52,247 bases of DNA from an uncultured Candidatus Marinamargulisbacteria bacterium. Its GTDB lineage: Bacteria > Margulisbacteria > Marinamargulisbacteria > CAYINU01. Where the stretch lies: assembly GCA_964364855.1 (NCBI GenBank), contig CAYINU010000001.1:23110-75356 (forward strand), given 5' to 3'. Shown here one piece after another: positions 4,473-50,027 of this stretch. Under the pieces are notes generated by a model. The model ran no database searches. It worked only from the letters and a program-made list of their open reading frames with translations, and was not told the origin of the DNA. Numbering within the stretch: position 1 is the stretch's first letter; each line of letters starts with the position of its first letter. Position numbers and translations under genes: made by a program.

Positions 4473-4949
4473 TTAAAGAGCGGCTTTTTTGAAAAAATTC
4501 TCTTTTTCGTCCTGGTCTAATCCCTGCTCGAAAGTAGACTTTTCATCGGCCTCGGCAATGAGAACATGTTCGGGCGTGAAAAGGAAGATATTTTCGCCGA
4601 TTTTGAGCATATGGCCGTTGATGGCATAGGCCGTTCCACAAACGAAGTCGATGAGGCGCTTACCGGCGGCGGAGTCCAAATACTTGAGGCTGACGATAAC
4701 AGGCTTGCCCTCGCGCAGGTGGGTAGCGATGTTTAAGGAGTCTTCATAGATGCGGGGTTCTTCGACTTTGATTTCGTTTAAGGCCATGTGTTGTGTGGCG
4801 CTGGAAACCAACGTGCCACGAAAGCCACGAATGACGGGGCGGGACACCGATTCCTTGGTGGATTTGGAACTAGAACCATTAACTGTGCTGGGGATTTCAG
4901 CATCGTCTTCGAATCCGAAAAAAATTTTCACTTTTTGCATCATGGTCAT
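4473..4949 (-). CDS. sepF: Cell division protein SepF
   Basis: The C-terminal DUF552-like core (IKVEEPRIYEDSLNIATHLREGKPVIVSL...GHMLKIGENIFLFTP) and its position directly downstream of yggS match the conserved ylmE-ylmF arrangement. Confidence 0.8.
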   Translation of the reverse strand: MTMMQKVKIFFGFEDDAEIPSTVNGSSSKSTKESVSRPVIRGFRGTLVSSATQHMALNEIKVEEPRIYEDSLNIATHLREGKPVIVSLKYLDSAAGKRLIDFVCGTAYAINGHMLKIGENIFLFTPEHVLIAEADEKSTFEQGLDQDEKENFFKKAAL

Positions 4950-10728: not shown

Positions 10729-10778
10729 CCCCTTACGCTCAAAGGTTGAGTTTTGTCCTTGGCAAACTCAGTAAGGGG
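10729..10778 (+). promoter_or_regulatory. Interrupted inverted repeat in the ccoN leader that can pair with the Shine-Dalgarno sequence
   Basis: CCCCTTAC(10729-36) and TGAGTTT(10747-53) are complementary to the contiguous AAACTCAGTAAGGGG(10764-78). That stretch contains the AAGGGG SD, 8 nt before the ATG at 10787. An alternative small hairpin, CTCAA-AGG-TTGAG, competes for the same TTGAG. Confidence 0.3.
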
Positions 10779-10786
10779 TGCCTGGT

Positions 10787-12922
10787 ATGAGTCATACGGT
10801 GCGCGTCCGCGGCGAAGAATCGTTTTTTAGTTTTGACAATCACATTGTCCGACTGTTTGCACTGGCCACCATGTTTTGGGGATTCGTGGGGATCTTGTTG
10901 GGGGTCGCGATTGCACTGCAGTTGGCGCATTGGCCTTTCAATTTTGATACCTCTTGGATCACATTTGGCCGGCTTCGGCCTTTGCATACCAATGCCACCA
11001 TTTTTGCTTTTGCCGGCAATGCCATTTTTATGGGGATCTACCATTCCACCCAACGGTTACTCAAAACGCGGATGGCCTCCGATGTACTGAGTCGCCTGCA
11101 TTTTTGGGGATGGCAATTGGTGATTGTCGTTGCCGCCATTACGCTTCCATTGGGGATTACGACCGGCAAAGAATATGCCGAACTGGAATGGCCCATCGAC
11201 ATTTTGATCACGGTTGTCTGGGTGATATTTGCCATCAACTTTTTTTGGACGCTGATTAAACGGCGCGAAAAGCACATCTACGTGGCAATTTGGTTTTATA
11301 TTGCGACTATCGTTACCGTGGCGCTGTTGCATATCGTCAACTCGATGGAACTGCCCGTCACGTTGCTAAAAAGCTATTCGATGTATGCCGGCGTGTCCGA
11401 TGCGCTCGTTCAATGGTGGTATGGTCACAACGCAGTGGCTTTTTTTCTGACGACCCCATTTTTGGGTCTGATGTATTACTACGTGCCCAAAGCCATCAAT
11501 CGTCCGATTTATAGCTATCGCCTCTCCATCATTCATTTTTGGTCGTTGGTCTTTATTTATATTTGGGCGGGGCCTCACCATTTACTGTACACCACGTTGC
11601 CAGATTGGGCGCAGACCTTTGGCATGGTGTTTAGCATCATGCTGATCGCACCGAGCTGGGGAGGCATGATCAACGGACTGTTGACGATGCGAGGGGCATG
11701 GGACCGCGTCCGAAAAGATCCCGTACTCAAGATGATGGTGCTGGCATTGACGTGTTACGGGATGGCAACTTTCGAAGGGCCGTTGCTCTCAATCAAGTCG
11801 GTGAATGCACTGGCCCATTTTTCGGATTGGATCATCGGTCACGTTCACATTGGCACCTTGGGTTGGAACGGATTTCTGATCTTCGCCATTTTGTATTACG
11901 TTGTTCCCAAGCTGTGGCGTACTCCCCTTTACAGCGAAAAATTGGCCAATGTCCACTTTTGGATCGGGACGGTGGGCATTGTGTTTTATGTCGTGAGCAT
12001 GTGGACGTCCGGCATCACACAGGGTTTGATGTTGCGCGCGATATCCGGTGGACAGTTGCTCTATCCCGACTTTATGGAAACCGTCGTCCGTATTCAGCCT
12101 TTGTACTACATTCGTGCCTTGGGCGGGATAATGTATCTGATCGGATTTCTCATCATGGTCTATAACCTGGCCAGGACTATTAAAGCTGGTGTGGTTGCGG
12201 ATGAAACGGTCCGCGCCGTTTCCAACGTCGGAGAGCCGCAAGACATGAGCGACAATGCGTTTCACCGCAACATCGAAGGGATGCCTGTCTTTTTTGCCGT
12301 GTTGACCGTGGGGGCAGTATTGGTCGGAAGTATTGTCGAAATAGTGCCATCGTTAACAGCGCATGTGTATGTCAAACCCCCGGCACGCTATCAGCCCTAT
12401 ACGCCTCTCGAATTGACCGGACGCGATATCTATATCCGGGAGGGATGCTATACCTGTCACTCTCAGATGGTCCGTCCGTTGGTGGCTGACCAATTGCGTT
12501 ACGGTGAACGTTCTCATGTCGAAGAAAGTTATTACGACCATCCCTTCCAATGGGGATCTCGTCGAACCGGACCCGATTTGGCTCGCATTGGCGGTAAGTA
12601 TCCTGACCTTTGGCATTTTCGGCATATGCGAAATCCCCGAGACACTACCCCAAAGTCGATCATGCCGAACTATCCTTGGCTTTACGAGCAAAAATGGGAT
12701 CCGCAACTCTTGGCTAAAAAATTGGTGGTTATGCGACGCCTGGGGGTCCCCTACGGTGAGAGTGACATATCAGACGGCATGCAAAATGCCCAATATCAGG
12801 CTGGGGAAGTCACACAGAAACTGCAACAACAGGGGGCTCACGACGCCAAACCGGATCGGGAGATCATTGCGTTAATTGCCTATTTGCAGCGGCTCAACTA
12901 TCCCAAGGAGGACGTCCAATGA
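10787..12922 (+). CDS. ccoNO: Fused cbb3-type cytochrome c oxidase subunits I and II (CcoN-CcoO fusion)
   Basis: The N-terminal 470 aa or so is a 12-plus TM heme-copper oxidase domain. The C-terminal part has the CcoO signature YTPLELTGRDIYIREGCYTCHSQMVRP...GPDLARIGGKY...HMRNPRDTTPKSIMPNYPWL with one CxxCH. Confidence 0.9.
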   Translation: MSHTVRVRGEESFFSFDNHIVRLFALATMFWGFVGILLGVAIALQLAHWPFNFDTSWITFGRLRPLHTNATIFAFAGNAIFMGIYHSTQRLLKTRMASDVLSRLHFWGWQLVIVVAAITLPLGITTGKEYAELEWPIDILITVVWVIFAINFFWTLIKRREKHIYVAIWFYIATIVTVALLHIVNSMELPVTLLKSYSMYAGVSDALVQWWYGHNAVAFFLTTPFLGLMYYYVPKAINRPIYSYRLSIIHFWSLVFIYIWAGPHHLLYTTLPDWAQTFGMVFSIMLIAPSWGGMINGLLTMRGAWDRVRKDPVLKMMVLALTCYGMATFEGPLLSIKSVNALAHFSDWIIGHVHIGTLGWNGFLIFAILYYVVPKLWRTPLYSEKLANVHFWIGTVGIVFYVVSMWTSGITQGLMLRAISGGQLLYPDFMETVVRIQPLYYIRALGGIMYLIGFLIMVYNLARTIKAGVVADETVRAVSNVGEPQDMSDNAFHRNIEGMPVFFAVLTVGAVLVGSIVEIVPSLTAHVYVKPPARYQPYTPLELTGRDIYIREGCYTCHSQMVRPLVADQLRYGERSHVEESYYDHPFQWGSRRTGPDLARIGGKYPDLWHFRHMRNPRDTTPKSIMPNYPWLYEQKWDPQLLAKKLVVMRRLGVPYGESDISDGMQNAQYQAGEVTQKLQQQGAHDAKPDREIIALIAYLQRLNYPKEDVQ

Positions 12923-26560: not shown

Positions 26561-26656
26561 ATCGTCATTAAAACTCTACAAGATGGAGCGGTATTTTGGC
26601 CATTGCCGCTAAAAAGAGGCATTCATTTTTTGCCGTAAATAAAGGGGTTACCTCTG

Positions 26657-27598
26657 GTGGCGATCTGTGATAATTTCTCACGAATTACAATGTCCTATTT
26701 CAAACAAGTTGCGGTAGAAAATGACAGTGCCCGGCAGGTTCCGGACAATAGCGTCTGTTGTCCCATCACATTTGAGCCTTATTCGGAAAAAAATCCACCG
26801 ATGTTCGTTTGCACGAACGCGCATCGCATCGGTCTTGTGGCATTGGAAGAAATAGAAAAATTGCGACCCGAAATGCAGTGTTGTCCGTTTTGCCGTAAAC
26901 GATTGGGAAGCATTAGGAGAAGGGATGATGACTACCTTCAAATTTTGGCGCCGGCCCATGACCGCCTTTTACCGACGTGGCCAGAGCTGGATATAGCCCA
27001 TCGAGGTACCCTTAGCGCCATCGACCAGTTATTCTCTCAGGTTAGTAGGTCGGATTCGGATATAGATACTGATCGCGTTAATCGCGTTTCTAATCAGGCC
27101 GTCTCGGCGCTGAAGCCGCTGGTTGAAATTTATGGTTCCGGACATCCTGAACTGGCTTACCGGCTGGCCACAGCGGCGTATTATAAAAACGACATGTATA
27201 CCGCACTGCTGAGCCTGCCAGATCGATATCGGGCCGAACATCTTATCGAGTTGCAGTGCAGACAATTCCGCCTGGAGATCTTGGATGGCATGGGGCTGGT
27301 GCCCAAGGGCGCATGGTCCACTCTCAATGATCAGCTTGGGTGCCTGTCGATTACACCTGAAACCCGGTATCGGGTTACCTATCTGACTCTGATGACAGGT
27401 TTATTTCTGGTCAAGGAAACCCGGTCTAAATTCATTAACGATGCGAGAGTACGGGTGCTTTTGGCCGGCCCGCCTCCTTTAGATCGTGCGCGGGTGTTAC
27501 AACTGTGTGGCGCGGCGGATAGTTTTATAGACGACAATCCCGATTGTAGGGAGTTACTTTTACCGGTGACGACTTTTTTGAGGCAACTTGCTGGCTGA
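26657..27598 (+). CDS. Hypothetical protein with an N-terminal U-box/RING-like domain and a helical C-terminal region
   Basis: VCCPITFEPYSEKNPPMFVCTNAHRIGLVALEEIEKLRPEMQCCPFCRKRL resembles the U-box/RING layout (CPI[ST]xE...H...CPxC). GTG start at 26657, with an alternative ATG at 26690. The domain call rests on pattern recognition only. Confidence 0.5.
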   Translation: MAICDNFSRITMSYFKQVAVENDSARQVPDNSVCCPITFEPYSEKNPPMFVCTNAHRIGLVALEEIEKLRPEMQCCPFCRKRLGSIRRRDDDYLQILAPAHDRLLPTWPELDIAHRGTLSAIDQLFSQVSRSDSDIDTDRVNRVSNQAVSALKPLVEIYGSGHPELAYRLATAAYYKNDMYTALLSLPDRYRAEHLIELQCRQFRLEILDGMGLVPKGAWSTLNDQLGCLSITPETRYRVTYLTLMTGLFLVKETRSKFINDARVRVLLAGPPPLDRARVLQLCGAADSFIDDNPDCRELLLPVTTFLRQLAG

Positions 27599-30448
27599 TA
27601 GCGCGGCTAATACTTGAGCCACGCTTAACGTGGAGTCTGTTATCTGATTTAGTATTTGGCGAAGATCTCGGATTTTCATTTTCATGATATGTCCCAAATC
27701 GATCAGTTGAGCCTGGTCATCGGGTATTTTTCCCAACTCACGATGCAGCGTCAGAATTTGATCTGCATATCCGGAAATGTCGGCTTCACCTACTGAAATT
27801 CGAATACCCGTTCCCGCGTCCGTAATAGCGGCAGATGAGAATCCGAAGCTCATGCGTCGGGTGGCGCCAAGTGGGGCCAGGCGTAAGTAGAGAAGGTGCG
27901 TGATGATGATGGCTAGCCGCTCTTGCGCCCCCCCGATTGGTAATCCGGATATATGCTTTTGCACGGCCTCTGCCAGGCCAGTCGTATGGAGGGACACGAA
28001 CAAGCCATCGACATGGGTTCGTTCCCCCACCGTTAGTCCGACCTGGCTTTTCACTGGCCTCGTGGAAAGAGGCAATTTTAGGATCAATTCCTGATACAAG
28101 GCATTGGCCTGTGTGCCCAAATCGGGATATCGTTGAAGTAGTAGTTGTGCCGTGAACCCATGTAAAAACGCAAACATGCGTTCACTGGAGGCTGGCATGG
28201 GGGTATGATGATGCCATCCATCCAATGCCGCCATAAACGCCTTTGCCACGTGATTATTTCCTATGACGATTGTGGCGCCACCCGTTAGCCTATCTCCACC
28301 GAATTGGACGACCTTTGCCAAGCTCGTGACCAATACCAGCAGCATATTGGGATGTGACTTTACGGCCTTAATACACGCCAATACATCGGGATGAAGGTAA
28401 GACACCGTCGTGATATCCAATACGATTACGGTCTGTTGATCCGCCCTTCGCTGGCTGACTGCCTGCAAGATCTGGGTGATAGGCAGGTTGGCGTCAGTCG
28501 GTTGTGTGGAGTCATTAGTTCGGATATCGGTGACGATAACACAGGGTTGGTGGGAACGAGATAGGTCGTCTAGCGATTGCTGAGAATCGATCATTACGCC
28601 TGTCGCAAACCTGCTGCACAACCTACCTCGGCCTATACCGTTAAGGTGCTCAAAATAGTAACTATGCTGAACCCCCACCCGAACCGGGCCAAATGCACGG
28701 AGTGAAAGCATGACATTCAAAAACGACTGGGATCCACTGGCCGTAAAACGGGGGTAAATACCAGTGCTTTCATCCAGATAAGGTGAATAGATGTCGGATA
28801 GCACATGATCAAACGGTTTACCCGGATTCAAAAATTGTAAAAAAATCAGGACAGTTTCGGAGAACGTTTCGAAGCCACTTTCAATACCCAATACATCCGC
28901 ATCCCCAAGGGACTGTATGTAGCGCCATCCATCCCGAAACATCCGCATCGAAAGGTCCAATACGCTTTGGCGGATATTGGGGCATTGTGTGACCAGCGTT
29001 ATCAGCGGTTGGCAAGCGTGAGGGTCCAGTAACAAACAAATCAGCCCCTCCGCCATCTGCGCGATGACGTTGGCACGTGCGGACCTTAGAACCCGATGCG
29101 TCTTGCTTTGAATCGGGAGCTGATCCCTTGCAGCTTGGGATAATTTTAAAAAGAGATTACAGACCCAGGCGCGAAAGTCAATCTGCTCCGGGATGGGCCC
29201 GCGTCTTTCGACCAAGGTCGCCTGAACCGGCTGTTTGGCCTCAAGTTGGGTAGCAAAGTCTTGGTCAATGACGGTCTGCCGAATCGTGGTAGACGGAGGC
29301 AAGGCAAATGAGGCTAGCAGTGAACGAAGTTCACCCAGCCGCTTGTGCTGGCTGGTAAACATCACCACGATACCACTTCCCCCATCATGTGCCTGACCAT
29401 CCGGTCCCAAGCAAACCACCCATAAAATGCCAGGGTGGTGACTGAGATTTACGATTGCCGAAATGACCGGCGGGATCGCTTTGGGAAACTTCTGAATGAC
29501 CGGAGTAAGATCGGCAACACATAGCTGGGAGGAAGAGCCGATTACTTTGGCTTCGTCGTTTAGCCAGCGGGCGGTTTCAATCAGTGCTTCACCTGTGTCG
29601 GGAGGCGGTATACTGACAAATGTCATGTGAGCGGTGCTATTAACAATACCCAAGAGATAGTTGTAGTTTGTGACCAATACGGGTTTGACCCCGTCTCGTG
29701 TCCATCGACGGGATAATAGCTGAGCCGGCCCATCAAGCATGTTTCGTGTGTAAATGGATCTGGTCAAATCCTTGGGCCCCGTGATTTTTGCGTATAAATA
29801 ATCCCCTGCCCCTTTTTGAGCGGGGTCCGACAGGGTCGGGCGTGGGGCATTCTTGTGTAGGGTTTCGTGAGCGAGCGGAGCCAATCTTGATAACATGTCG
29901 CGTACCAGTGCGCGTAGGCTATCATTATCCTGTGCAGCTTCCAGCTGGGCGAGCAGAGCACGGATAGTGGTCGACAGTTGCGCTTCGAAACGGAAGACTT
30001 CCGTTGGCATTTTTAATAAGGCGTCAGTTCCCGAACATCTTTCCCAGCCTTCCCTTCGGCTAAAATCGATGCTCATTTGAGGGCCCCATACTGGGGCAGA
30101 TACCTTGGAAACCTGTGATTTGTTAAAGTCGGGCAAGTCCGACGGAAGGGGCTTTGGGGGTGTTGACGGTAGAAATGCAATTGCACGTCGTTGGCGTGCT
30201 GATGGGGTTACTTGAAGGGGAGGAGAAGGATAAAATGCGGCTGCCCGCCTAGCAAGGCGTGATGCCGAAAGCGGCGGATGAGTTGGGGCCGGCTGATCGT
30301 GGGTCAGGCAGAAAATGCAATGTTGGAGGTGGCCTAAGAAAAAATCTAGCGATTCCCCTGTTTGAACAGATGCGGTATAGGCCCCCACCTTCCCACTGAT
30401 GTCCGTACCGGCTGTACCAGCAAGTTGCTTTTTAAAAAAGTGCAGCAT
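27560..30448 (-). CDS. Large (962 aa) hypothetical protein: Pro-rich N-terminus, unknown central region, PLP-dependent fold-type-I-like C-terminal half
   Basis: A long uninterrupted ORF. The C-terminal 400 aa or so are collinear by eye with Cys/Met-metabolism PLP enzymes: TASGSQSF ~ TxSGMxAI, VIVLDITT ~ vvvDNTf, LVTSLAKVVQFGGDRLTGGATIV ~ vvhSaTKylgGHsDvvgGavv, RMSFGFSSAAIT ~ SLGGvESLi, GIRISVGEADISGYADQI ~ liRlSvGiEdveDLiaDl. Confidence 0.55.
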   Translation of the reverse strand: MLHFFKKQLAGTAGTDISGKVGAYTASVQTGESLDFFLGHLQHCIFCLTHDQPAPTHPPLSASRLARRAAAFYPSPPLQVTPSARQRRAIAFLPSTPPKPLPSDLPDFNKSQVSKVSAPVWGPQMSIDFSRREGWERCSGTDALLKMPTEVFRFEAQLSTTIRALLAQLEAAQDNDSLRALVRDMLSRLAPLAHETLHKNAPRPTLSDPAQKGAGDYLYAKITGPKDLTRSIYTRNMLDGPAQLLSRRWTRDGVKPVLVTNYNYLLGIVNSTAHMTFVSIPPPDTGEALIETARWLNDEAKVIGSSSQLCVADLTPVIQKFPKAIPPVISAIVNLSHHPGILWVVCLGPDGQAHDGGSGIVVMFTSQHKRLGELRSLLASFALPPSTTIRQTVIDQDFATQLEAKQPVQATLVERRGPIPEQIDFRAWVCNLFLKLSQAARDQLPIQSKTHRVLRSARANVIAQMAEGLICLLLDPHACQPLITLVTQCPNIRQSVLDLSMRMFRDGWRYIQSLGDADVLGIESGFETFSETVLIFLQFLNPGKPFDHVLSDIYSPYLDESTGIYPRFTASGSQSFLNVMLSLRAFGPVRVGVQHSYYFEHLNGIGRGRLCSRFATGVMIDSQQSLDDLSRSHQPCVIVTDIRTNDSTQPTDANLPITQILQAVSQRRADQQTVIVLDITTVSYLHPDVLACIKAVKSHPNMLLVLVTSLAKVVQFGGDRLTGGATIVIGNNHVAKAFMAALDGWHHHTPMPASSERMFAFLHGFTAQLLLQRYPDLGTQANALYQELILKLPLSTRPVKSQVGLTVGERTHVDGLFVSLHTTGLAEAVQKHISGLPIGGAQERLAIIITHLLYLRLAPLGATRRMSFGFSSAAITDAGTGIRISVGEADISGYADQILTLHRELGKIPDDQAQLIDLGHIMKMKIRDLRQILNQITDSTLSVAQVLAALSASKLPQKSRHR

Positions 30449-30601: not shown

Positions 30602-30631
30602 GTCAGAAACTACAATGTCAGAAACTACAAA
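30602..30631. repeat. 15-bp tandem duplication GTCAGAAACTACAA(T/A), 2 copies
   Basis: Read directly from the sequence. It lies just downstream of a G8 tract (30595-30602) and upstream of the lipoprotein signal peptide. Confidence 0.8.
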
Positions 30632-30653
30632 AAGAAGCGAAAAACCGAGGAAA

Positions 30654-31130
30654 ATGATGCGCAAAATAAAAATGACTATGTTTGGAATTATTGCAATTGT
30701 GGGGTTAGTCGCGCTAGGTATGACTGGGTGTGGAAAAGTAACCGAATCGACAGTTGAAACGCCGGTAGTTGAAACATCTCCAGACCTATCGAGGACGGTA
30801 ACAAATGGCGCGTTTTCATATACTTTGAGTGTATCGACCCCTAATGCTAATAGCAATTTAACCCTGACGATAAAACCAACCGATACGGCAACGCCGTTTC
30901 GCTATGCTTTTCTGGCAACGCGTACGTCCGGGACCGGGACGATTACCTATGACAATTCGTTTACCGCTGGGGGCAATCTGTCTTTAGGGTATTTCAATTT
31001 TACCGGGCAGAAAGAAATAGCGTTGAACTTTTCTACAATGGGTAGCGTTTACGCAATTGGGATCACGGTTCAAAACAGCGCCGGTACGACCACGCTATCC
31101 AGCGCGACCCTCAATGTGACGGTTCAATAG
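30654..31130 (+). CDS. Small putative lipoprotein (Thr/Ser-rich, probably beta-rich)
   Basis: MMRKIKMTMFGIIAIVGLVALGMTGCGK is a signal peptide with a lipobox (LGMTGC). A GAGGA SD precedes the ATGATG at 30654/30657. I recognise no homolog. Confidence 0.6.
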   Translation: MMRKIKMTMFGIIAIVGLVALGMTGCGKVTESTVETPVVETSPDLSRTVTNGAFSYTLSVSTPNANSNLTLTIKPTDTATPFRYAFLATRTSGTGTITYDNSFTAGGNLSLGYFNFTGQKEIALNFSTMGSVYAIGITVQNSAGTTTLSSATLNVTVQ

Positions 31131-31170: not shown

Positions 31171-31234
31171 GTATTTTTGACCGGACTCTAAAATACTCGC
31201 GAGTATTTTTGACAATGGGTGAAAATACTCGTAT
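31171..31234. repeat. 32-bp tandem repeat, 2 copies, each holding the inverted pair GTATTTT/AAAATAC; the junction forms a perfect 20-bp palindrome AAAATACTCGCGAGTATTTT (31190-31209)
   Basis: Unit 1 is GTATTTTTGACCGGACTCTAAAATACTCGCGA and unit 2 is GTATTTTTGACAATGGGTGAAAATACTCGTAT, both read directly from the sequence. Confidence 0.85.
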
Positions 31235-31237
31235 GAT
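31209..31237 (+). promoter_or_regulatory. Near-consensus sigma70-type promoter TTGACA-17 nt-TATGAT
   Basis: -35 TTGACA at 31209-31214 and -10 TATGAT at 31232-31237 with a 17-nt spacer. The predicted start site falls at or next to the ATG at 31245, which suggests a leaderless or very short-leader mRNA. The promoter is embedded in the 32-bp repeat and palindrome. Confidence 0.5.
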
Positions 31238-31244
31238 TGCGCCT

Positions 31245-32366
31245 ATGAACCTAAAAAAGCGATATCTTTCGGATCAGGTCGAGCAAGACCTGATGGCAAA
31301 AATGGTCTTTGTCGGCGGACCGCGACAGGTGGGCAAGACAACATTGGCCAAATCGCTTCTGGGTCCTGATAAAGCCGGCTATTTGAACTGGGACATTGCC
31401 CAAGACCGAGAGAGGATACTGCGACATGAATTGCCGGATGTACCGTTCTGGGCCTTCGATGAAATCCACAAATACAAGAGCTGGCGTAGCTATTTAAAAG
31501 GAGTGTATGACCAATTTGGGCGATCGAAAAAAATAGTGGTAACCGGAAGCGCAAAACTGAATCTTTATCGTCGCGGCGGGGATTCTCTGCAAGGACGCTA
31601 TCACTATTTGCGGCTACATCCGTTGAGTGTGGCTGAGCTTCGTATAGATACCAAAGGTGACTTTGACGATTTATTGGAATTGGGGGGGTTCCCAGAGCCA
31701 TTTTTTTTGGGAAAGGCGATAGAGGCCAAGCGCTGGTCGCGGGAATACCGACAACGTCTCATTCAAGATGATCTGACCGCCTTAGAAAGCATTCGGGATT
31801 TGGGGAACTTGGAGCTTTTAATGTTACGCTTACCTGACTTGGTGGGCTCGCCCTTATCGGTGAATGCACTACGAGAGGACCTGGGCGTGAGCCATAAAAC
31901 GGTTGCCCATTGGTTGGACGTTTTTGCCAATTTGTATGCCATCTTTCGGGTCTCACCGTTTGGTTCTCCTTCGATACGCGCCGTCAAAAAGGAACAAAAA
32001 CATTATCATTTTGATTGGACATTGGTTACGGATCCGGGTGCGCGATTTGAAAATATGGTGGCTTGTCATTTACTGAAATGGGTGCAATTTGAGCAGGACA
32101 CGAAGGCCCGCGAACTGGAGCTGCGTTACTTCCGAGACATTGATGGACGCGAAGTTGATTTTGTTGTCACCGACAATGGGAAACCCATTTACGCCATCGA
32201 ATGCAAAAGCGGTATAAAAGACATTAATCCCGCCTTGCGGTATTTCAAGGCGAAATTTCCCGATTGTACCGCGTGGCAAGTCTCAGCCACTGAAGGATCT
32301 GCCTATATCAACCGAGATGGTGTGAAATATAGCCACGCGCTGGAGCTGCTTAAGGGATTGGTTTAA
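31245..32366 (+). CDS. AAA-family ATPase with a DUF4143-type C-terminal domain
   Basis: Walker A GGPRQVGKTTLAK, Walker B-like WAFDEIH, and a C-terminal FENMVACHLLK...LRYFRDIDGREVDFVV motif typical of the AAA_14/DUF4143 family. Start chosen at MNLKKRYL on the promoter geometry; the track ORF starts at a TTG at 31209. Confidence 0.8.
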   Translation: MNLKKRYLSDQVEQDLMAKMVFVGGPRQVGKTTLAKSLLGPDKAGYLNWDIAQDRERILRHELPDVPFWAFDEIHKYKSWRSYLKGVYDQFGRSKKIVVTGSAKLNLYRRGGDSLQGRYHYLRLHPLSVAELRIDTKGDFDDLLELGGFPEPFFLGKAIEAKRWSREYRQRLIQDDLTALESIRDLGNLELLMLRLPDLVGSPLSVNALREDLGVSHKTVAHWLDVFANLYAIFRVSPFGSPSIRAVKKEQKHYHFDWTLVTDPGARFENMVACHLLKWVQFEQDTKARELELRYFRDIDGREVDFVVTDNGKPIYAIECKSGIKDINPALRYFKAKFPDCTAWQVSATEGSAYINRDGVKYSHALELLKGLV

Positions 32367-33604: not shown

Positions 33605-34086
33605 ATGTTCCGTCGATTTATTAGACCTGCTTTATCTAGGAGTTTTTTTATTTTCGGCCCACGGGGAAGCGGCAAGATCTTGGTGTTAAGCGTGCGTTGG
33701 ACAGAACATTAAGCTCTGAATTGTCTCCGAATACCTACGGTTATGAAAAGGCGTTCGAGCATTTTTTTATATTAGAGCTCTATCGCTTAAATGTGTACTT
33801 CAAGCTAGACCTCAGATTGTATTATCTGCGGACCAAAGACCATTTGGATTATTACCATCCCCAGCGGCACGTTATTGTAACGAATCATGTGATGGTATTT
33901 GCTGACCGTGACGTTGATTTTACCCAATTGGATCTGGATGCTAGCAAGGTCATATACAGCGGCGGCTCTTTAAAGGATCCAGATGAAGTAGCCCGGAATC
34001 GTTTTGATGATCAACGATTAAGCGGTTTTAAAAATGTGGTCGTCTGTCTCTCGTCAAGGGATACGATGCCGCAAAAACAGCCCTGA
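33605..34086 (+). pseudogene. Decayed AAA/DUF4143 ATPase paralog (frameshifted, internally deleted, 3' end replaced by repeat)
   Basis: The ORF from ATG 33605 gives MFRRFIRPALSRSFFIFGPRGSGKILV (Walker A) and stops at 33710. A different frame from 33697 gives ...YEKAFEHFFILELYRL...LRLYYLRTKD, which resembles the DUF4143 C-terminal motif. The whole ATPase core between them is missing. The reading frame ends inside repeat module X at 34084-34086. Confidence 0.55.
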
Positions 34087-34322
34087 GCTGAGCGAAGACG
34101 AATTTACTTCGACCGAACGGGGCGAGTGCTCGCGAGCTACTGCGAGCCCCTTACTAATTAGTGGACACATTTCTGAGCGAAGCGAAGCAAGGCCCAAAGG
34201 GCCGGAGAGGTAATTAGATTGTGTGGACTGGAAACAGCCCTGAGCTGAGCGAAGACGAATTTATTTCGGCTGAGCGGGGCGAGTGCTCGTGAGCTACTGC
34301 GAGCATGCCGAGCCAATACAAA
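34075..34322. repeat. Modular hairpin-rich repeat block directly 3' of tRNA-Met (modules X-Y-Z-X)
   Basis: The 73-bp module X is at 34075-34147 and 34232-34304. The 38-bp module Y (CTGAGCGAAGCGAAGCAAGGCCCAAAGGGCCGGAGAGG) is at 34173-34210. Linker Z (TAATTAGATTGTGTGGACTGG) is at 34211-34231. The stretch 34173-34316 is nearly identical to 47610-47747. Confidence 0.85.
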
Positions 34323-34399
34323 TGGTAGCGGCGACTGGGGTCGAACCAGTGACACCACGGGTATGAACCGTGTGCTCTAACCACCTGAGCTACGCCGCC
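34323..34399 (-). tRNA. tRNA-Met (anticodon CAT), elongator-like, CCA encoded
   Basis: Minus strand reads GGCGGCGTAGCTCAGGTGGTTAGAGCACACGGTTCATACCCGTGGTGTCACTGGTTCGACCCCAGTCGCCGCTACCA. It folds as a cloverleaf with a 7-bp acceptor, GTAGCTCAG D arm, anticodon loop TTCATAC and GGTTCGA T loop. It lacks the initiator features (no C1 mismatch, no GGG/CCC anticodon stem). A lysidine-modified tRNA-Ile cannot be excluded. Confidence 0.9.
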
Positions 34400-36135: not shown

Positions 36136-36882
36136 CTATCGGGATTGAACGCGATTCGCAGTTAGCTTGTCCAGCTCCATCCGCTCGATTTTGGTGAGGG
36201 GGCGAATGTCCCCGGCCTTCATACCCGACAGGGTCACCGGCCCGATACCAATACGTTTAAGCTTGATTACCGTCAGCCCCAGCGCCTCAAACGCCCGCCG
36301 CACGATGCGGTTTCGGCCTTCGGAAATGACGACTTCAACTTGCTTGTCCGACAGGGGGGCAATATGAACAAACGACACGGGTGTGTCATCGGACAGTGGA
36401 ATGGGATGGGTCAGTGCCCGTAGTGTCCGGTGCGAGAGGCGTTTGTTGACTTCCACGACGTAGGCTTTCGGAATTTCAAAACGGGGGTGGGTCATGCGCT
36501 GGGCCCATGGGCCGTCGTTGGTCAGCAAATAAAGGCCCGTCGTGTGCCGGTCCAAGCGGCCCACGGGGAAAACAGGTTCCGGGATGCGGGATACAAATGA
36601 TGACAGGTCTAACCGTCCGCTGGGATCATGAAGGGTCGAAATCACGTTTTTAGGCTTATAGAATTTGTAGTAAACGAAATCATAGGCATTCCGCACTGGC
36701 TTTTTGTCAATTTTGACCGTGTCTTTTTGAGGATCGATTTCTGCGGTGAGCGCGGTGGCCACGTTGCTATTCACCGTGATGCGTTCTTCCACCAACAGGC
36801 GCAAGATCTCTCGCCGAGAAAAAGTCGTTTGTGCGGCAATAAAACGCTCAAGCGGTAATTTTTTTCTAATCATAATGAACAT
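36136..36882 (-). CDS. rluB: Pseudouridine synthase, RsuA/RluB family (S4 domain plus catalytic domain)
   Basis: N-terminal S4-like LERFIAAQTTFSRREILRLL and catalytic GRLDRHTTGLYLLTNDG. The start may instead be the ATG at 36873 (MIRKK). Confidence 0.8.
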   Translation of the reverse strand: MFIMIRKKLPLERFIAAQTTFSRREILRLLVEERITVNSNVATALTAEIDPQKDTVKIDKKPVRNAYDFVYYKFYKPKNVISTLHDPSGRLDLSSFVSRIPEPVFPVGRLDRHTTGLYLLTNDGPWAQRMTHPRFEIPKAYVVEVNKRLSHRTLRALTHPIPLSDDTPVSFVHIAPLSDKQVEVVISEGRNRIVRRAFEALGLTVIKLKRIGIGPVTLSGMKAGDIRPLTKIERMELDKLTANRVQSR

Positions 36883-37411
36883 CCACTCTGGGGTTACCCA
36901 TCAGTCGCAATTTTTGCGGAGGAATACGTGCCGAAAAAGCGCCCCCATGGATACGCATGACTGGCGAGGTAATTTGGACATTTCCTGACCCCTCAATGGT
37001 CTGAGCCTGTGTTTGCCAGACCAGATCGTCTGTACGGATATGAACGCGCACATCCGGAAGCTGGAGCTCCGAGTCTGAGTCATAAAAATGGAGGATTCCA
37101 TCCTGGGTTTGTAGATCAGCAGTCGGCGCTGAAATATCAAACACAGATGCGGTTCCCTTGAAGTAGTGGCCGTTGATTTTAGACATGGTAAGGCGTGTAT
37201 TATCACGGCTAACCTGAGCCGTTTTGGCAGTGAGTTGAAAGGTCTGGGTCGTGCGGTCAAACTGGGTGACACGGACGTCCTCGAACACAAATCCCGGGGT
37301 TTCTTTGGTCATAAATGGAGCCAAATGCGGTGATACAAAAGAGAATACGATGATAAAAACCAAGGCCAGAGCCACACCCAATTGTGACCACAACCGACGA
37401 TTGAGCACCAT
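36866..37411 (-). CDS. LptC-like periplasmic protein with an N-terminal membrane anchor
   Basis: One TM helix followed by a beta-rich region of about 150 aa with an OstA/LptC-like pattern (FEDVRVTQFDRTTQTFQLTAKTAQV...). This is a weak family-level call. Confidence 0.5.
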   Translation of the reverse strand: MVLNRRLWSQLGVALALVFIIVFSFVSPHLAPFMTKETPGFVFEDVRVTQFDRTTQTFQLTAKTAQVSRDNTRLTMSKINGHYFKGTASVFDISAPTADLQTQDGILHFYDSDSELQLPDVRVHIRTDDLVWQTQAQTIEGSGNVQITSPVMRIHGGAFSARIPPQKLRLMGNPRVDVHYD

Positions 37412-40211: not shown

Positions 40212-41185
40212 CGTGCGCCATCCTGGATTTCACGGCAGATGTTGATGGCAGCAATCATGCCGTCCGAAACGGCGGTGGCGATCTGGCGAATTTGCTTGGA
40301 TCGGATATCTCCGGCAGCGTAAATACCGGCGATGCTGGTGCGCATCAATTCATCCGTGACGATATAGCCTTTTTCGTCCCGCTGCAGCGGCAAGGCAAAC
40401 AGCGCATCGGGCGGGATGCGACCTGCATAAATAAAGATACCTTTGACATCGATCCAGGTATGTTGTCCGGTAATGACGTGGGTGACTTTCATCTTTTCGA
40501 CTTTGTCGATACCGAAGACTTCGGTCAGTTCGGAATTCCACATCAAGGTGACGTGGGGATTGTTGAGAATTTTGTCTTTGAGTTGATCGACGGCTTTGAG
40601 CTGGTCGGAGCGGTGAACCAAGTAAACCGTGTTGGAAAAACGGGACAAATAGTCTGCGGCATAGGACGCACAATTGCCTCCGCCGATGACGGCAATATCG
40701 GTTCCCGAATAACTATCGGCATCGCACTGCGCAAAATACGAGATACCTCGGCCAAAAAAGGTTCGCTCATAGGGCATATTCAGGCGTTTCGGCTCTAGCC
40801 CGACGGCCAGCAAAATGGTTCGGGCTTTGTAGATCTGGCCCAGATCCGTGCGCACCATTTTGACGGGCTGGTTGATCTGGTCGATGGCCTCAACAGTCTC
40901 ACAGGTATAGTCGATGGGGTAGTTATGCATGTGGGCTTCCATGCGGTTGGACAGCTCTTCGCCCAAAATGCCGTTCGGAAACCCGAGGTAATTGTCGATT
41001 TGAAAGGAAATGGATGCCTCTCCGCCGGGAACAGCCTTCTCGATCACCAGGGTTTTGAGGCGAGCGCGTCCTGCGCAAATGGCTGCAGACATGCCTGCAG
41101 GCCCCGAACCAATAATGATCAGATCATAACTATCGCCGGGCTTGGGTTTGGAGACGGTAGGCTGCGTCGAGGTTTGACTGATCAT
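40208..41185 (-). CDS. Thioredoxin-reductase-like flavoprotein lacking the CxxC redox centre
   Basis: FAD motif IIIGSGPAGMSAA, a second dinucleotide motif VIGGGNCASYAADYL and the C-terminal AAGDIRSKQIRQIATAVSDGMIAA. The active-site region reads SYFAQCDADSY where TrxB has SACATCDGFFY. Confidence 0.8.
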   Translation of the reverse strand: MISQTSTQPTVSKPKPGDSYDLIIIGSGPAGMSAAICAGRARLKTLVIEKAVPGGEASISFQIDNYLGFPNGILGEELSNRMEAHMHNYPIDYTCETVEAIDQINQPVKMVRTDLGQIYKARTILLAVGLEPKRLNMPYERTFFGRGISYFAQCDADSYSGTDIAVIGGGNCASYAADYLSRFSNTVYLVHRSDQLKAVDQLKDKILNNPHVTLMWNSELTEVFGIDKVEKMKVTHVITGQHTWIDVKGIFIYAGRIPPDALFALPLQRDEKGYIVTDELMRTSIAGIYAAGDIRSKQIRQIATAVSDGMIAAINICREIQDGAR

Positions 41186-41748
41186 TACATTCCCTTAAAC
41201 CGATCTGCCATGACCCTAATGTGCGTGTCGCCGGATGAGATGATGCGTTTTTGCGCCAAAAAAATGGTAATGGTTTTGGCTGAGATCGTATCCGAATCGC
41301 GGTGGGCCATTGGATCTCCGGATAATACAATCGTTTGTTTGGTCAAGTCAAACGAGGCTGAGCGGGAAGACCCGTACATGGTGTCATATTTAAAACGCAC
41401 ATTTCCGGCCGCATCGATGGTATTGGCGATATCGTTTGCCACCAGCTGGTCTGCGGTTAGCGTATATTCACCATTTGAGGCCTGTACCTGGTCGGTCACC
41501 CATATCATGCCCTTTTGCCTATCGTAGCGTGCATTCTGGCCTTTGATGGTGATGGATCGTTGTTTGATCACTACATTTCCGGATGCGAGGATTTGCTGGT
41601 TCTGGCCGTCTAATTCAAATTGGTCCGCCGACAGAAGGATATTGCCCATCTGGGTGGTCGAAGGGGCCGCATGCAAAATGACGCCGAAACAGGTCATTCC
41701 CACGATAACGGCTACCCATTGCAAGCGGCGTTTTGACATCTGCCCCAT
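41185..41748 (-). CDS. LptA/OstA-N-like periplasmic protein
   Basis: Signal peptide, then repetitive beta-jellyroll-like segments (LSADQFELDGQNQQILASGNVVIKQRSITIKGQNARYDRQKG...) typical of the OstA_N/LptA fold. Confidence 0.6.
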   Translation of the reverse strand: MGQMSKRRLQWVAVIVGMTCFGVILHAAPSTTQMGNILLSADQFELDGQNQQILASGNVVIKQRSITIKGQNARYDRQKGMIWVTDQVQASNGEYTLTADQLVANDIANTIDAAGNVRFKYDTMYGSSRSASFDLTKQTIVLSGDPMAHRDSDTISAKTITIFLAQKRIISSGDTHIRVMADRFKGM

Positions 41749-47828: not shown

Positions 47829-47960
47829 AAAACAGGTCAAAATTAACCGAATGTCACTAAAAGCGCAAGCGCGCCTCATCCCTCAAGCGCTGGGATCATT
47901 GCTTGCAAAACAGGCATCAAAAAGTCTAATATGAGAAGCAGCGTTTCCATACCACAGTCG

Positions 47961-48851
47961 ATGTTTGCAGAAAGGAGCCTTCCTTTGAGAAGCCCAGTGT
48001 TTCGAGCGGGCACGTTAATTGCCAGCCTTTGCGTTGCCATGACGCTGATGAGTTGCGGATCCAATCTTTTTTCATTTTTAGAAACCTCCGGTGGAGGATC
48101 TTCGGCCGAAGAAGCCCAGTCGCTTCTTGACAACGCCACCACCGTGGCGCAGTTCCAGCAGGCTGCCAATCTGGCCCAAGGCATCGTGAGCAGCAATGCC
48201 ACTGCCGAACAAAAGCAAGAGGCCTACGTGGTACTGGGGGAGGCATTGCTGGGTAGTGCCAACGTTCAAATGACCACGGTACTCGGCGACATCGCCGATG
48301 TGGCGTCTTCGAATAACGCGACGGTGCAAGATTTTATTTCCGCACTACCTTCGGCGGATACCAATACTCTGGCGGCAGCAGCCAATGCGATAAACGCGGC
48401 CAACAATCTGTCCACCAGCACCAATGAGCAGATTTCTGCCGACGCGCAGTTGTTTCGAGGTGTGACCAATGCCCTGGTGGCCGTTAACCTGGTCCAAGAA
48501 GTAGCGACATTTAACAACGGTCAGGTTGACCTCCAAGACACGGCAAATATCAAAGCAGATATCAACCAACTGGTGGTCGGAACCGGTACTATCCAAGGTG
48601 TTTCCACCTATGTAAATGCAGCCGATCAAGGACTGAGTTCTGCCGATGCGCTTAGTTCGGATCAAGGCAAGCAGGTCGATAATCTTGTCTCGGCATCTGC
48701 GGAGTTGACCGTTTTAAACAACACGATGCAAAGTACGACCAATAACGTATACACCCTCTCCTCCGGAGCCACGTTGAACCTGACGGAGTCCAATCCGTCC
48801 TTTTCGGATAACGTCAGTACCGCGCTCGAAGATATCTTTAGAAGTCGGTAA
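47961..48851 (+). CDS. Ala/Asn/Ser/Thr-rich putative lipoprotein
   Basis: MFAERSLPLRSPVFRAGTLIASLCVAMTLMSCGSN is a signal peptide with a lipobox-like LMSC. The rest is low-complexity and predicted helical. The track ORF starts at 47931, but that ATG overlaps a TTGCAA-18-TAATAT promoter-like element. Confidence 0.55.
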   Translation: MFAERSLPLRSPVFRAGTLIASLCVAMTLMSCGSNLFSFLETSGGGSSAEEAQSLLDNATTVAQFQQAANLAQGIVSSNATAEQKQEAYVVLGEALLGSANVQMTTVLGDIADVASSNNATVQDFISALPSADTNTLAAAANAINAANNLSTSTNEQISADAQLFRGVTNALVAVNLVQEVATFNNGQVDLQDTANIKADINQLVVGTGTIQGVSTYVNAADQGLSSADALSSDQGKQVDNLVSASAELTVLNNTMQSTTNNVYTLSSGATLNLTESNPSFSDNVSTALEDIFRSR

Positions 48852-48863
48852 GGGGGGATAGCC

Positions 48864-50027
48864 ATGCGTTTAACAAAGTTAAGTATCTGTATCGGTGTGG
48901 CGGCGAGTATCGCGTTATCGGCACCGGCCTTTGCTGTCCTGCAAGATGTTCCTGTGACCAATATCCGAACCATGGCCATGGGTGGTGCGGGATTTGCTGT
49001 GGCGGATGATTATGCGGCGCTGTACCAAAACCCGGCGGCATTATCCAATGTGACCAGTCTCAAGTTTAATCTGTTATCGATTCGCGGAGACGTGGCGACG
49101 TCCGTTTTTTCCAATTGGACGAAATTTTATAATGTCTACAACCAGGTGAAAAACTCTGGGGGGAATACGCAAGAGGCAGTTGACTCTCTTGGCCCCCTTA
49201 TTCCAACCAACGTGGCGCTAAATGGTGGCGGCAATGTCGTCTCTGTGGCCGGCAATAGCTGGGGGTTGGGGGTGTTTAATCAAAGCAACTCTGTGGAGGC
49301 ATTGCGTAACCGGTCCAATCCCTATGTTTTGCTAAGTGGCGTGTCCGAAGCCTCGGCCATCATTGGGAAGTCTTTCGGGATCACCCTCATCGGCATCCCA
49401 ATGGATATTGGGTTATCGGCTCGTTATTTTTACCGCTACGAACTCATTGATGGCAGTACTTCAGACACCGAACTTCAGGTGGGTATGGCCCGGTTCTTGC
49501 GGATGGTGAATGGGAGTGAGAGTTTCAATTTCGATCGACTGTCCGGTACGGGGGTCGGGTTTGACGCAGGTGTGTTGATGCCTTTAAAAACGCCTGCCGG
49601 TGACGGCAAATGGGGCGTGGTGGTGCGCAACATTGGTACGCGAATCTCGGGGACGACGACGATTAGCAGCGCCAATGCCTCCTTTTCCGACACGATTCAA
49701 AGCCGAGTGGGCATCGGTGTGGGCCTCAACACGGGTGTTCCCTCCTGGATTCCGGTACTCAATGGCATCGGCACCTTTCTACTGGCAGCGGACTATTACC
49801 TCCCTGTTAATGGCGAAAGCTGGCTCAAGGGTATCCATATTGGGGCCGAAAAGCCATTTTGGATATTCAAGCTGAGAGGGGGTCTTAACCAAGGGTTTAT
49901 TGTGGGGGGTGTCGGGATGCGACTCTTTATACTCGACTTTAATTTCGCCTATAACAAAGAAGCACTCGGGTCGCGAATCAACATTGATCCGATCGACTAT
50001 TACACGTTCCAATTTGGCTTGCTGTAG
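48864..50027 (+). CDS. Putative outer-membrane beta-barrel protein (PorV/FadL/TraF-like pattern)
   Basis: Signal peptide ending APAFA, the N-terminal motif MAMGGAGFAVADDYAALYQNPAAL, and alternating amphipathic beta-strand patterns through to the C-terminus. Confidence 0.55.
   Translation: MRLTKLSICIGVAASIALSAPAFAVLQDVPVTNIRTMAMGGAGFAVADDYAALYQNPAALSNVTSLKFNLLSIRGDVATSVFSNWTKFYNVYNQVKNSGGNTQEAVDSLGPLIPTNVALNGGGNVVSVAGNSWGLGVFNQSNSVEALRNRSNPYVLLSGVSEASAIIGKSFGITLIGIPMDIGLSARYFYRYELIDGSTSDTELQVGMARFLRMVNGSESFNFDRLSGTGVGFDAGVLMPLKTPAGDGKWGVVVRNIGTRISGTTTISSANASFSDTIQSRVGIGVGLNTGVPSWIPVLNGIGTFLLAADYYLPVNGESWLKGIHIGAEKPFWIFKLRGGLNQGFIVGGVGMRLFILDFNFAYNKEALGSRINIDPIDYYTFQFGLL

Follow-up and report, generated by a model that had tools for sequence, protein, structure and literature searches.

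A candidate one-zinc RING-like module in an orphan protein from a groundwater relative of Margulisbacteria

Is the cysteine- and histidine-rich N-terminus of a predicted protein from an uncultured groundwater bacterium a finger of the RING superfamily and, if so, of which kind? The question is raised by an open reading frame (ORF) located in a stretch of 52,247 nucleotides (nt) from an uncultured Candidatus Marinamargulisbacteria bacterium (contig CAYINU010000001.1); the whole stretch is referred to below as the window. A first-pass annotation had described the ORF as encoding a U-box/RING-like domain protein in a bacterial chromosome. The ORF was found as that annotation had placed it (26657-27598, 313 amino acids [aa]), and the peptide that had been quoted for residues 33-83 is identical to the actual translation. 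We consider it plausible, though unproven, with a probability of about 0.4, that the N-terminal module of this protein is a RING-superfamily finger. The case consists of one motif, statistically borderline, in a single orphan sequence, and it is presented here as a candidate and a modest lead, not as a finding.

Ligand pattern and RING similarity of the N-terminal module

The cysteines of the protein are concentrated close to its N-terminus. Seven of the 11 were counted within 46 residues (34-79), the residues listed being C34, C35, C52, C75, C76 and C79 together with H56. The RING consensus reads C-x2-C-x(9-39)-C-x(1-3)-H-x(2-3)-C-x2-C-x(4-48)-C-x2-C. When set against this template, the module reads C35-x2-T38-x13-C52-x3-H56-x2-G59-x2-A62-x13-C76-x2-C79, with all spacings within the template ranges. 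The second zinc site, made up of ligand positions 3, 4, 7 and 8, is intact, with C52, H56, C76 and C79 in these places. The first-site positions are occupied by C35, T38, G59 and A62, ligand positions 2, 5 and 6 being thus Thr, Gly and Ala. A RING-HC domain has eight Cys/His ligands for two zincs; here three ligands are missing, all of them from the first site, and therefore the module could bind one zinc at most. As judged from its ligands, the module would represent the one-zinc state of SP-RING/Nse2 domains and not the zinc-free state of U-boxes. At the level of the pattern, which is the only level at which it holds, the agreement with SP-RING/Nse2 comprises CPIT, C52-x3-H56, C76-x2-C79 and the non-ligand residues T38/G59/A62. 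Residues Ile37, Pro77 and Arg80 sit at what we take to be the RING E2-contact and linchpin positions, on the basis of the alignment to RNF4 and of established knowledge on RINGs.

Similarity to proteins of known structure was searched for in PDB (177,635 sequences). With the full protein as query, four of the six sequences obtained at E ≤ 10 were RING domains of RNF4 and SIAH1; with the isolated domain, RNF4 and SIAH1 RINGs accounted for six of eight, in the expected register. The E-value was 0.003 for a tandem RNF4 construct and ranged from 0.06 to 0.5 for single domains. These alignments to RNF4 and SIAH1 run from CPI to CPxCRK.

For comparison with profiles, 22 reference domains were typed. 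Bit scores close to identity with PDB chains were obtained for ten U-box/SP-RING and nine RING domains; three further RINGs were left out, as they were not among the PDB matches listed, and the SIAH1 RING was taken from the PDB alignments. Small profiles were then built for RING (eight sequences), U-box (six) and SP-RING (four). A first RING profile that included RNF4 and SIAH1 was discarded as circular, because it held the query's own best matches. With the RING profile lacking both of them, the domain scored 9.2 bits and was aligned end to end in the expected register (residues 35-85), CPIT being paired with CPIC, H56 with the RING His and CPFCRK with CPvCrk. A score of 9.2 bits was reached by 96 of 40,000 full shuffles (0.24%) and by 35 of 40,000 shuffles in which Cys and His were kept fixed (0.09%), which corresponds to an empirical p of about 0.001-0.002. 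Since shuffles with fixed Cys and His rarely reach this score, residues other than Cys and His contribute to it. The pattern CP[ILVM][ST]..C-x1-3-H..C-x2-C was encountered in 7 of 200,000 composition-preserving shuffles (3.5e-5).

The same RING profile was calibrated with relatives of proven structure, and their scores span the range into which the domain falls. CHIP scored 4.5, PRPF19 8.2, Mms21 15.8 and SIAH1 19.5 bits; the ranges were -1 to 22.7 bits for U-boxes and 15.8-24.6 bits for SP-RINGs, and the left-out canonical RINGs gave 19.5 and 43.9 bits. The 9.2 bits of the domain hence lie in the twilight zone, where a highly divergent member and a chance match would both fit. Of the U-box/RING pattern put forward in the first-pass annotation, what stands is the motif with its RING spacing, together with nearest PDB matches that are RINGs in register.

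The gene and its orphan status

The reading frame offers two start codons. In addition to the GTG of the 313-aa form, an in-frame ATG is present at 26690, and from it a product of 302 aa would be obtained, which is the product called by JGI on an identical 2.6-kb metagenome contig. We infer that the GTG-started product of 313 aa is to be favoured, because the Shine-Dalgarno-like motif AAAGGGG precedes the GTG and none comparable precedes the ATG. Twenty-five window genes with Pfam support served to train a simple codon model, with which all six frames were scored. The annotated frame of the gene scores best of the six, and the gene is taken to be coding in it. Its score is 0.00 bits/codon, versus 0.30 ± 0.07 for the training housekeeping genes and 0.14-0.24 for other annotated genes, and the 962-aa and 171-aa ORFs located downstream have equally low scores. 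As the three ORFs all score low, the genes from 26.6 to 31.1 kb make up a block with atypical coding.

Four studies, with deposition dates from 2018 to 2025, include groundwater and aquifer metagenomes in which DNA identical to this locus occurs, and every metagenome contig that aligned to the gene is identical to it in sequence. Two of the groundwater runs contain 95-96% of the sequence words sampled from the locus. Among metagenome contigs aligned at 80% likeness, no diverged allele was found over 26.6-30.4 kb that would serve for a ratio of nonsynonymous to synonymous substitutions (dN/dS); the same contigs pile up on the UPF0182 gene, on the AAA_14 gene and on the tRNA. RNA was found in one metatranscriptome, as one 155-nt contig covering 26658-26812 at 2x depth. 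As the DNA run from the same study has the same depth, this contig does not establish expression. Another contig of the metatranscriptome stops exactly at 26560, where the start codon of UPF0182 has its first base, and the contig on the gene begins at 26658, one base past the GTG, so that the 97-nt spacer between both contigs is uncovered. At a depth of 2x, these contig ends may be an accident and not paired transcript 5′ ends. Promoter and terminator scans gave background levels. The protein has neither a hydrophobic segment nor a signal peptide (the maximum Kyte-Doolittle mean over 19 residues is 0.78).

The protein is a strict orphan, known from one uncultured groundwater bacterium. No homolog was found among 5.8 billion proteins with k-mer-seeded HMMER at E ≤ 0.01, nor when the search was repeated at E ≤ 10, the protein itself or nothing being returned; a full phmmer search of 1.84 billion cluster representatives did not yield any homolog either. 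Scans of GTDB genomes, JGI metagenomes and viral contigs gave no relative. By tblastn, no match was obtained against phages, and against plasmids a borderline match to ArsA was the only one. When 15,372 ORFs (from 161 loci plus the window) were searched with phmmer, no paralog was detected, nor did the surroundings of UPF0182 from other lineages, which are part of this set, contain a syntenic relative. The Pfam, NCBIfam, PADLOC and PHROGs libraries gave no match to the protein.

In the first-pass annotation, the remainder of the protein had been described as a helical repeat scaffold. Helices are predicted there with low confidence, and a search for internal repeats in the C-terminal 220 aa gave no signal (70 of 200 shuffles score as well), so that the repeat scaffold finds no support. 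This part has no family match and no transmembrane or signal segment. Residues 183-310 (27203-27586) are collinear with residues 64-178 of E. coli ArsA at 27% identity, with E-values of 0.018 in PDB and 0.3 in plasmids; the alignment includes RVLQLCGAADSFIDDNP against RLLQLPGAWSSFIDSNP. In the PDB alignment, GPPPLDR of the protein lies opposite DTAPTGH of ArsA, and no P-loop is aligned. Pfam, with the ArsA family included, gave no match for the protein or for its C-terminal part. Identity as an ArsA/Get3 ATPase was rejected, as there is no Pfam family and both the P-loop and the DTAPTGH signature are missing. The similarity to ArsA is, on these alignments, probably due to chance.

Genomic setting

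Housekeeping genes flank the orphan gene on both sides, in agreement with the chromosomal location given by the first-pass annotation. The genes carried by the window comprise those of transketolase, MazG, SepF, cbb3 oxidase, FadE, FadJ, FadI, FadD and UPF0182, and further genes are those of LptC, LptA, PyrH, Frr, UppS, CdsA, Dxr and DprA. The coordinates of the features discussed are collected in Table 1. The closest relatives of UPF0182 (49%) and of transketolase (59-61%) belong to Marinamargulisbacteria, to metagenome-assembled genomes (MAGs) labelled "UBP8" and to a New Zealand groundwater MAG. Because the relatives of these two proteins come from Marinamargulisbacteria and UBP8 MAGs, the host is placed, by protein similarity, as a divergent groundwater relative of Margulisbacteria. 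UBA6595, whose taxonomy name is labelled UBP8, has been treated as a member of Marinamargulisbacteria, and these bacteria have been reported to carry a type A oxidase (PMC6349859).

The orphan gene lacks an operon partner: it is divergent from UPF0182, at a distance of 97 nt, and shares 39 nt with the convergent 962-aa ORF. The 962-aa ORF is without homologs, without a match in PDB and without a Pfam family, a sub-threshold match to DUF2946 being all that was obtained. It is bracketed by a 21-nt inverted repeat (27574-27594 and 30417-30437; 81% complementary), the arms of which encode the C-terminus of the orphan protein (FLRQLAG, followed by the stop codon) and the N-terminal FKKQLAG of the 962-aa ORF. 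This inverted repeat is probably a chance occurrence. The start of the 171-aa ORF carries a perfect 14-nt tandem duplication, GTCAGAAACTACAA, at 30602-30630. Neither the 962-aa nor the 171-aa ORF has a match in Pfam, NCBIfam or PADLOC.

Beyond these ORFs lies the gene of the AAA_14/DUF4143 ATPase. Groundwater contigs cover it at 2-4x the local depth and with many diverged copies, and its family is hence either multi-copy or widespread. To its right are located a gene for a CNNM-type transporter and a tRNA-Met gene. A 73-nt direct repeat (34075-34147 and 34232-34304; 93% identical, 157 nt apart) adjoins the tRNA-Met. One metagenome contig has a joint that goes back 157 nt, and several contigs depart from the window at 34316-34399, which suggests copy-number or strain variation beside the tRNA-Met. 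A search for an att-like direct repeat of the 3′ end of tRNA-Met, by which an island would be delimited, gave none. In another part of the window, two adjacent ORFs of 306 and 387 aa (47931-48851 and 48864-50027, both on the + strand) show normal codon usage and are followed by an HD-domain protein; these two ORFs have no match in Pfam, PADLOC or PHROGs.

Table 1. Features of the window that are considered in the text (coordinates refer to the window)
Feature	Position	Strand	Remarks
Orphan ORF	26657-27598	+	GTG start, 313 aa
Shine-Dalgarno-like AAAGGGG	26641-26647	+	9 nt before GTG; read from sequence
N-terminal Cys/His-rich module, residues 29-83: PDNSVCCPITFEPYSEKNPPMFVCTNAHRIGLVALEEIEKLRPEMQCCPFCRKRL	26741-26905	+	RING-like spacing
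Putative single zinc site	26810-26893	+	RNF4 and RING-profile alignments; binding predicted
Codon of C52	26810-26812	+	
Codon of H56	26822-26824	+	
Codon of C76	26882-26884	+	
Codon of C79	26891-26893	+	
C-terminal part, residues 96-313	26942-27595	+	Mostly helical, low-confidence prediction
962-aa ORF	27560-30448	-	Orphan; codon score 0.07 bits/codon; Pro-rich N-terminal ~130 residues
171-aa orphan ORF	30615-31130	+	Only match a weak lipoprotein-like PHROG, E 0.006
AAA_14/DUF4143 ATPase	31209-32366	+	Matches PDC-S01, a candidate single-gene system for defence in PADLOC (E 5e-47)
tRNA-Met	34323-34399	-	
CcoN (COX1) and CcoO (FixO) of cbb3-type oxidase	10778-12922	+	In a single ORF
SepF	4473-4949	-	
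LptC/LptA	36866-37411 and 41185-41748	-	

Competing explanations and relation to known systems

The reading that we favour is that of a lineage-restricted cytoplasmic protein, the N-terminal ~55 residues of which would fold into a small finger, stabilised by zinc, that belongs to the RING superfamily. This finger would keep one zinc site, formed by C52, H56, C76 and C79, and would hold the first site metal-free, as SP-RING/Nse2 domains do. It may act as a docking module for an E2-like partner charged with ubiquitin or with one of the ubiquitin-like proteins (Ubl) and contacted via Ile37 (in CPIT), Pro77 (in CPFC) and Arg80 (the residue next to the last Cys). Binding of an E2-like partner is proposed because these three residues occupy E2-contact and linchpin positions. 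Choice of the target would fall to the C-terminal 220 residues, predicted to be helical, and the gene for the E2-like partner would lie elsewhere. Zinc binding, fold, E2 binding and ligase activity are in this way predictions made from the amino acid sequence, and a function as E3 or as effector is speculative. We advance the combination of a one-zinc RING-superfamily fold with an E3-like adaptor role as a tentative proposal, somewhat short of even odds. Very unlikely, in our estimate, is a functional single-zinc SP-RING-like E3 in a free-living or protist-associated member of Margulisbacteria, without detectable RING-family ancestry, that acts on eukaryotic ubiquitin/SUMO or on a bacterial E2/Ubl encoded elsewhere.

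Several results weigh against a RING-superfamily finger. The C-x3-H spacing lies at the edge of the RING consensus, and the pattern statistics are post hoc, as the motif was first picked by eye. When the 15,372 background ORFs were ranked by their score on the unbiased RING profile, the full protein came 48th, a level (~0.3% of these ORFs) to be expected by chance several times in each genome. No family of the RING clan, U-box, zf-MIZ or zf-Nse was obtained from Pfam, either with the full protein at E ≤ 1 or with the isolated domain at E ≤ 10. The only Pfam match of the isolated domain was the Rad50 zinc hook (helix-CPxC-helix; E 0.13), and eight shuffled controls gave none. The SP-RING profile (3.0 bits, reached by 285 of 5000 shuffles) and the U-box profile (3.2 bits, reached by 78 of 5000 shuffles) both align CPIT alone. 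Taking into account this last result and the complete Cys3His site that is kept, the U-box assignment of the first-pass annotation was given up. There are no homologs in which the Cys/His pattern could be compared, and for the same reason no alignment could be built for structure prediction. When run without alignment, AlphaFold2 gave a predicted local distance difference test score (pLDDT) of 43 for the 302-aa form and of 53 for residues 24-100. The model of the domain lacks a RING-like topology, and Foldseek searches of PDB with both low-confidence models gave no match at E ≤ 0.001; models of such quality are too poor to show or to exclude a cross-brace. The window has no gene for E1, E2, Ubl, JAB or a deubiquitinase. 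A neighbourhood of the Bil, Bub/6E or CBASS Cap2 type is not found, the neighbours being UPF0182, two orphan ORFs and the AAA_14/DUF4143 ATPase. The link to a eukaryotic host or prey, or to a bacterial Ubl or defence function, that had been drawn in the first-pass annotation is consequently left with no supporting gene in the window, the protein having in addition no signal peptide and no PADLOC match.

The same observations can be read in other ways. Strong clustering of Cys and His, with curated RING, U-box and SP-RING profiles nevertheless silent, is what a zinc-binding module outside the RING superfamily would give, namely a lineage-specific zinc knuckle formed by CPFC with C52/H56, or by C34/C35, and having no ubiquitin-like chemistry. 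Such a knuckle would agree with the zinc hook being the domain's only Pfam match and with AlphaFold2 recognising no RING fold. It might stabilise the protein or bind protein or nucleic acid, and a variable, defence-flavoured gene island would be a possible setting for it, as the neighbours are orphan ORFs and the PDC-S01-type ATPase and codon usage is atypical over 26.6-31.1 kb. However, the best matches of known structure are RINGs, aligned in an end-to-end register that extends beyond a CPxC knuckle, and the RING-profile score is lost on shuffling the residues other than Cys and His; a defence island is not supported by any PADLOC or PHROG match of the protein. We regard the zinc knuckle as rather unlikely, while giving it serious weight. 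The resemblance might also be fortuitous, the gene being young, fast-evolving or decaying, maybe poorly expressed or non-functional, and its Cys and His residues having no structural role. Strict orphan status in all protein and contig scans, a codon score of 0.00 against the 0.30 bits/codon of housekeeping genes, a RING score that about 0.3% of background ORFs reach, a motif selected by eye and RNA support limited to one 155-nt contig at the depth of the same-study DNA all fit a chance resemblance. Against it, an open frame of 313 codons, at 52% GC, is hardly to be expected in the absence of selection and the annotated frame is the best of six; the sequence is identical in all aligned metagenome contigs of the four studies, and the combined motif appears in only 3.5e-5 of shuffles. 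We judge chance to be an unlikely explanation, though less so than the last one to be considered.

This last explanation is a secreted effector, that is, a eukaryote-mimicking E3 that would hijack the ubiquitin or SUMO of a host or prey, as LubX, NleG and SneRING do. Some Margulisbacteria are protist ectosymbionts, and effectors are commonly orphans encoded by stand-alone genes of atypical codon usage; the Ile, Pro and Arg residues at the E2-contact and linchpin positions of the RING-like motif would also be in place. Nevertheless, no secretion-system gene is present in the window and the protein has no signal peptide. Known bacterial RING/U-box effectors acquired from eukaryotes are recognisable by sequence, and this protein is not. 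The gene repertoire of the window is of the free-living type (cbb3 oxidase, beta-oxidation, lipopolysaccharide [LPS] transport, transketolase), and the source is groundwater. Of all the explanations considered, we find the secreted effector the least probable.

Bacterial RING/U-box proteins and one-zinc RING relatives are already known. A RING-superfamily finger in this protein, if real, would be a new variant without traceable ancestry; if it were also active, an E3-type module would exist in a sister lineage of Cyanobacteria, invisible to profile searches. Among prokaryotes, RING genes reportedly tend to adjoin genes for E1, E2, Ubl or JAB proteins. The orphan protein differs from SneRING and from the prokaryotic RINGs in having no profile match, no such neighbours and no evident host association. 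SneRING, from the obligate intracellular bacterium Simkania, is a predicted RING for which E3 activity has been shown (PMC12591485), and a survey of prokaryotic RINGs (Burroughs, Iyer and Aravind 2011) is cited in PMC11601596.

With U-boxes (CHIP, UFD2/E4B, PRP19, plant PUBs, LubX, NleG) the module shares [IV]P-x-x-x-x-CPI[ST]-x-E and a late CP motif, as well as missing ligands at the first site; on the RING profile, some genuine U-boxes do not outscore it. U-boxes bind no zinc, whereas the module keeps the full Cys3His set, and in PDB no U-box, LubX or NleG entry was obtained at E ≤ 10 with the full protein or with the isolated domain. With the RING-HC domains of RNF4 and SIAH1 it is collinear from V-x-CPI to CPxCRK+[IL]; the spacing agrees, and all of them have Pro next to Cys7 and Arg or Lys next to Cys8, on the C-terminal side. 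It differs from RING-HC domains in lacking three of the eight zinc ligands and in its 9.2 bits, compared with 19.5-43.9 for left-out canonical RINGs.

SP-RINGs bind their zinc through a C-x(n)-H pair together with two Cys that come later in the sequence. SP-RING/Nse2 domains (Siz/PIAS, Nse2/Mms21) resemble the module in their CP[IL][ST] start, in a Ser/Thr that replaces the second Cys of site 1 and in positions 5 and 6 without ligands, as seen in the sequences of PIAS, Siz1, Mms21 and NSMCE2. The differences are a C-x3-H in place of the C-x-H of SP-RINGs, and no similarity at the profile level, Pfam zf-MIZ and zf-Nse being silent. Bacteria are not known to have a SUMO/Ubc9 system. SP-RINGs have been described as hybrids of U-box and RING that keep one zinc site, and the hemiRING of UBR4 as an E3 module related to RINGs that has a single zinc, is fused to a helical domain, escapes detection by sequence analysis, keeps the zinc site opposite to that of SP-RINGs and lacks the linchpin (PMC10873205). 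In contrast to the hemiRING, to which no sequence similarity was found, the orphan protein retains the site of the SP-RING type, and its linchpin position is occupied by Arg80. If the RING-superfamily reading is true, a bacterial member would be added to the small set of one-zinc RINGs formed by SP-RING and hemiRING, which would bear on how widely RING-type adaptors occur beyond eukaryotes and their pathogens.

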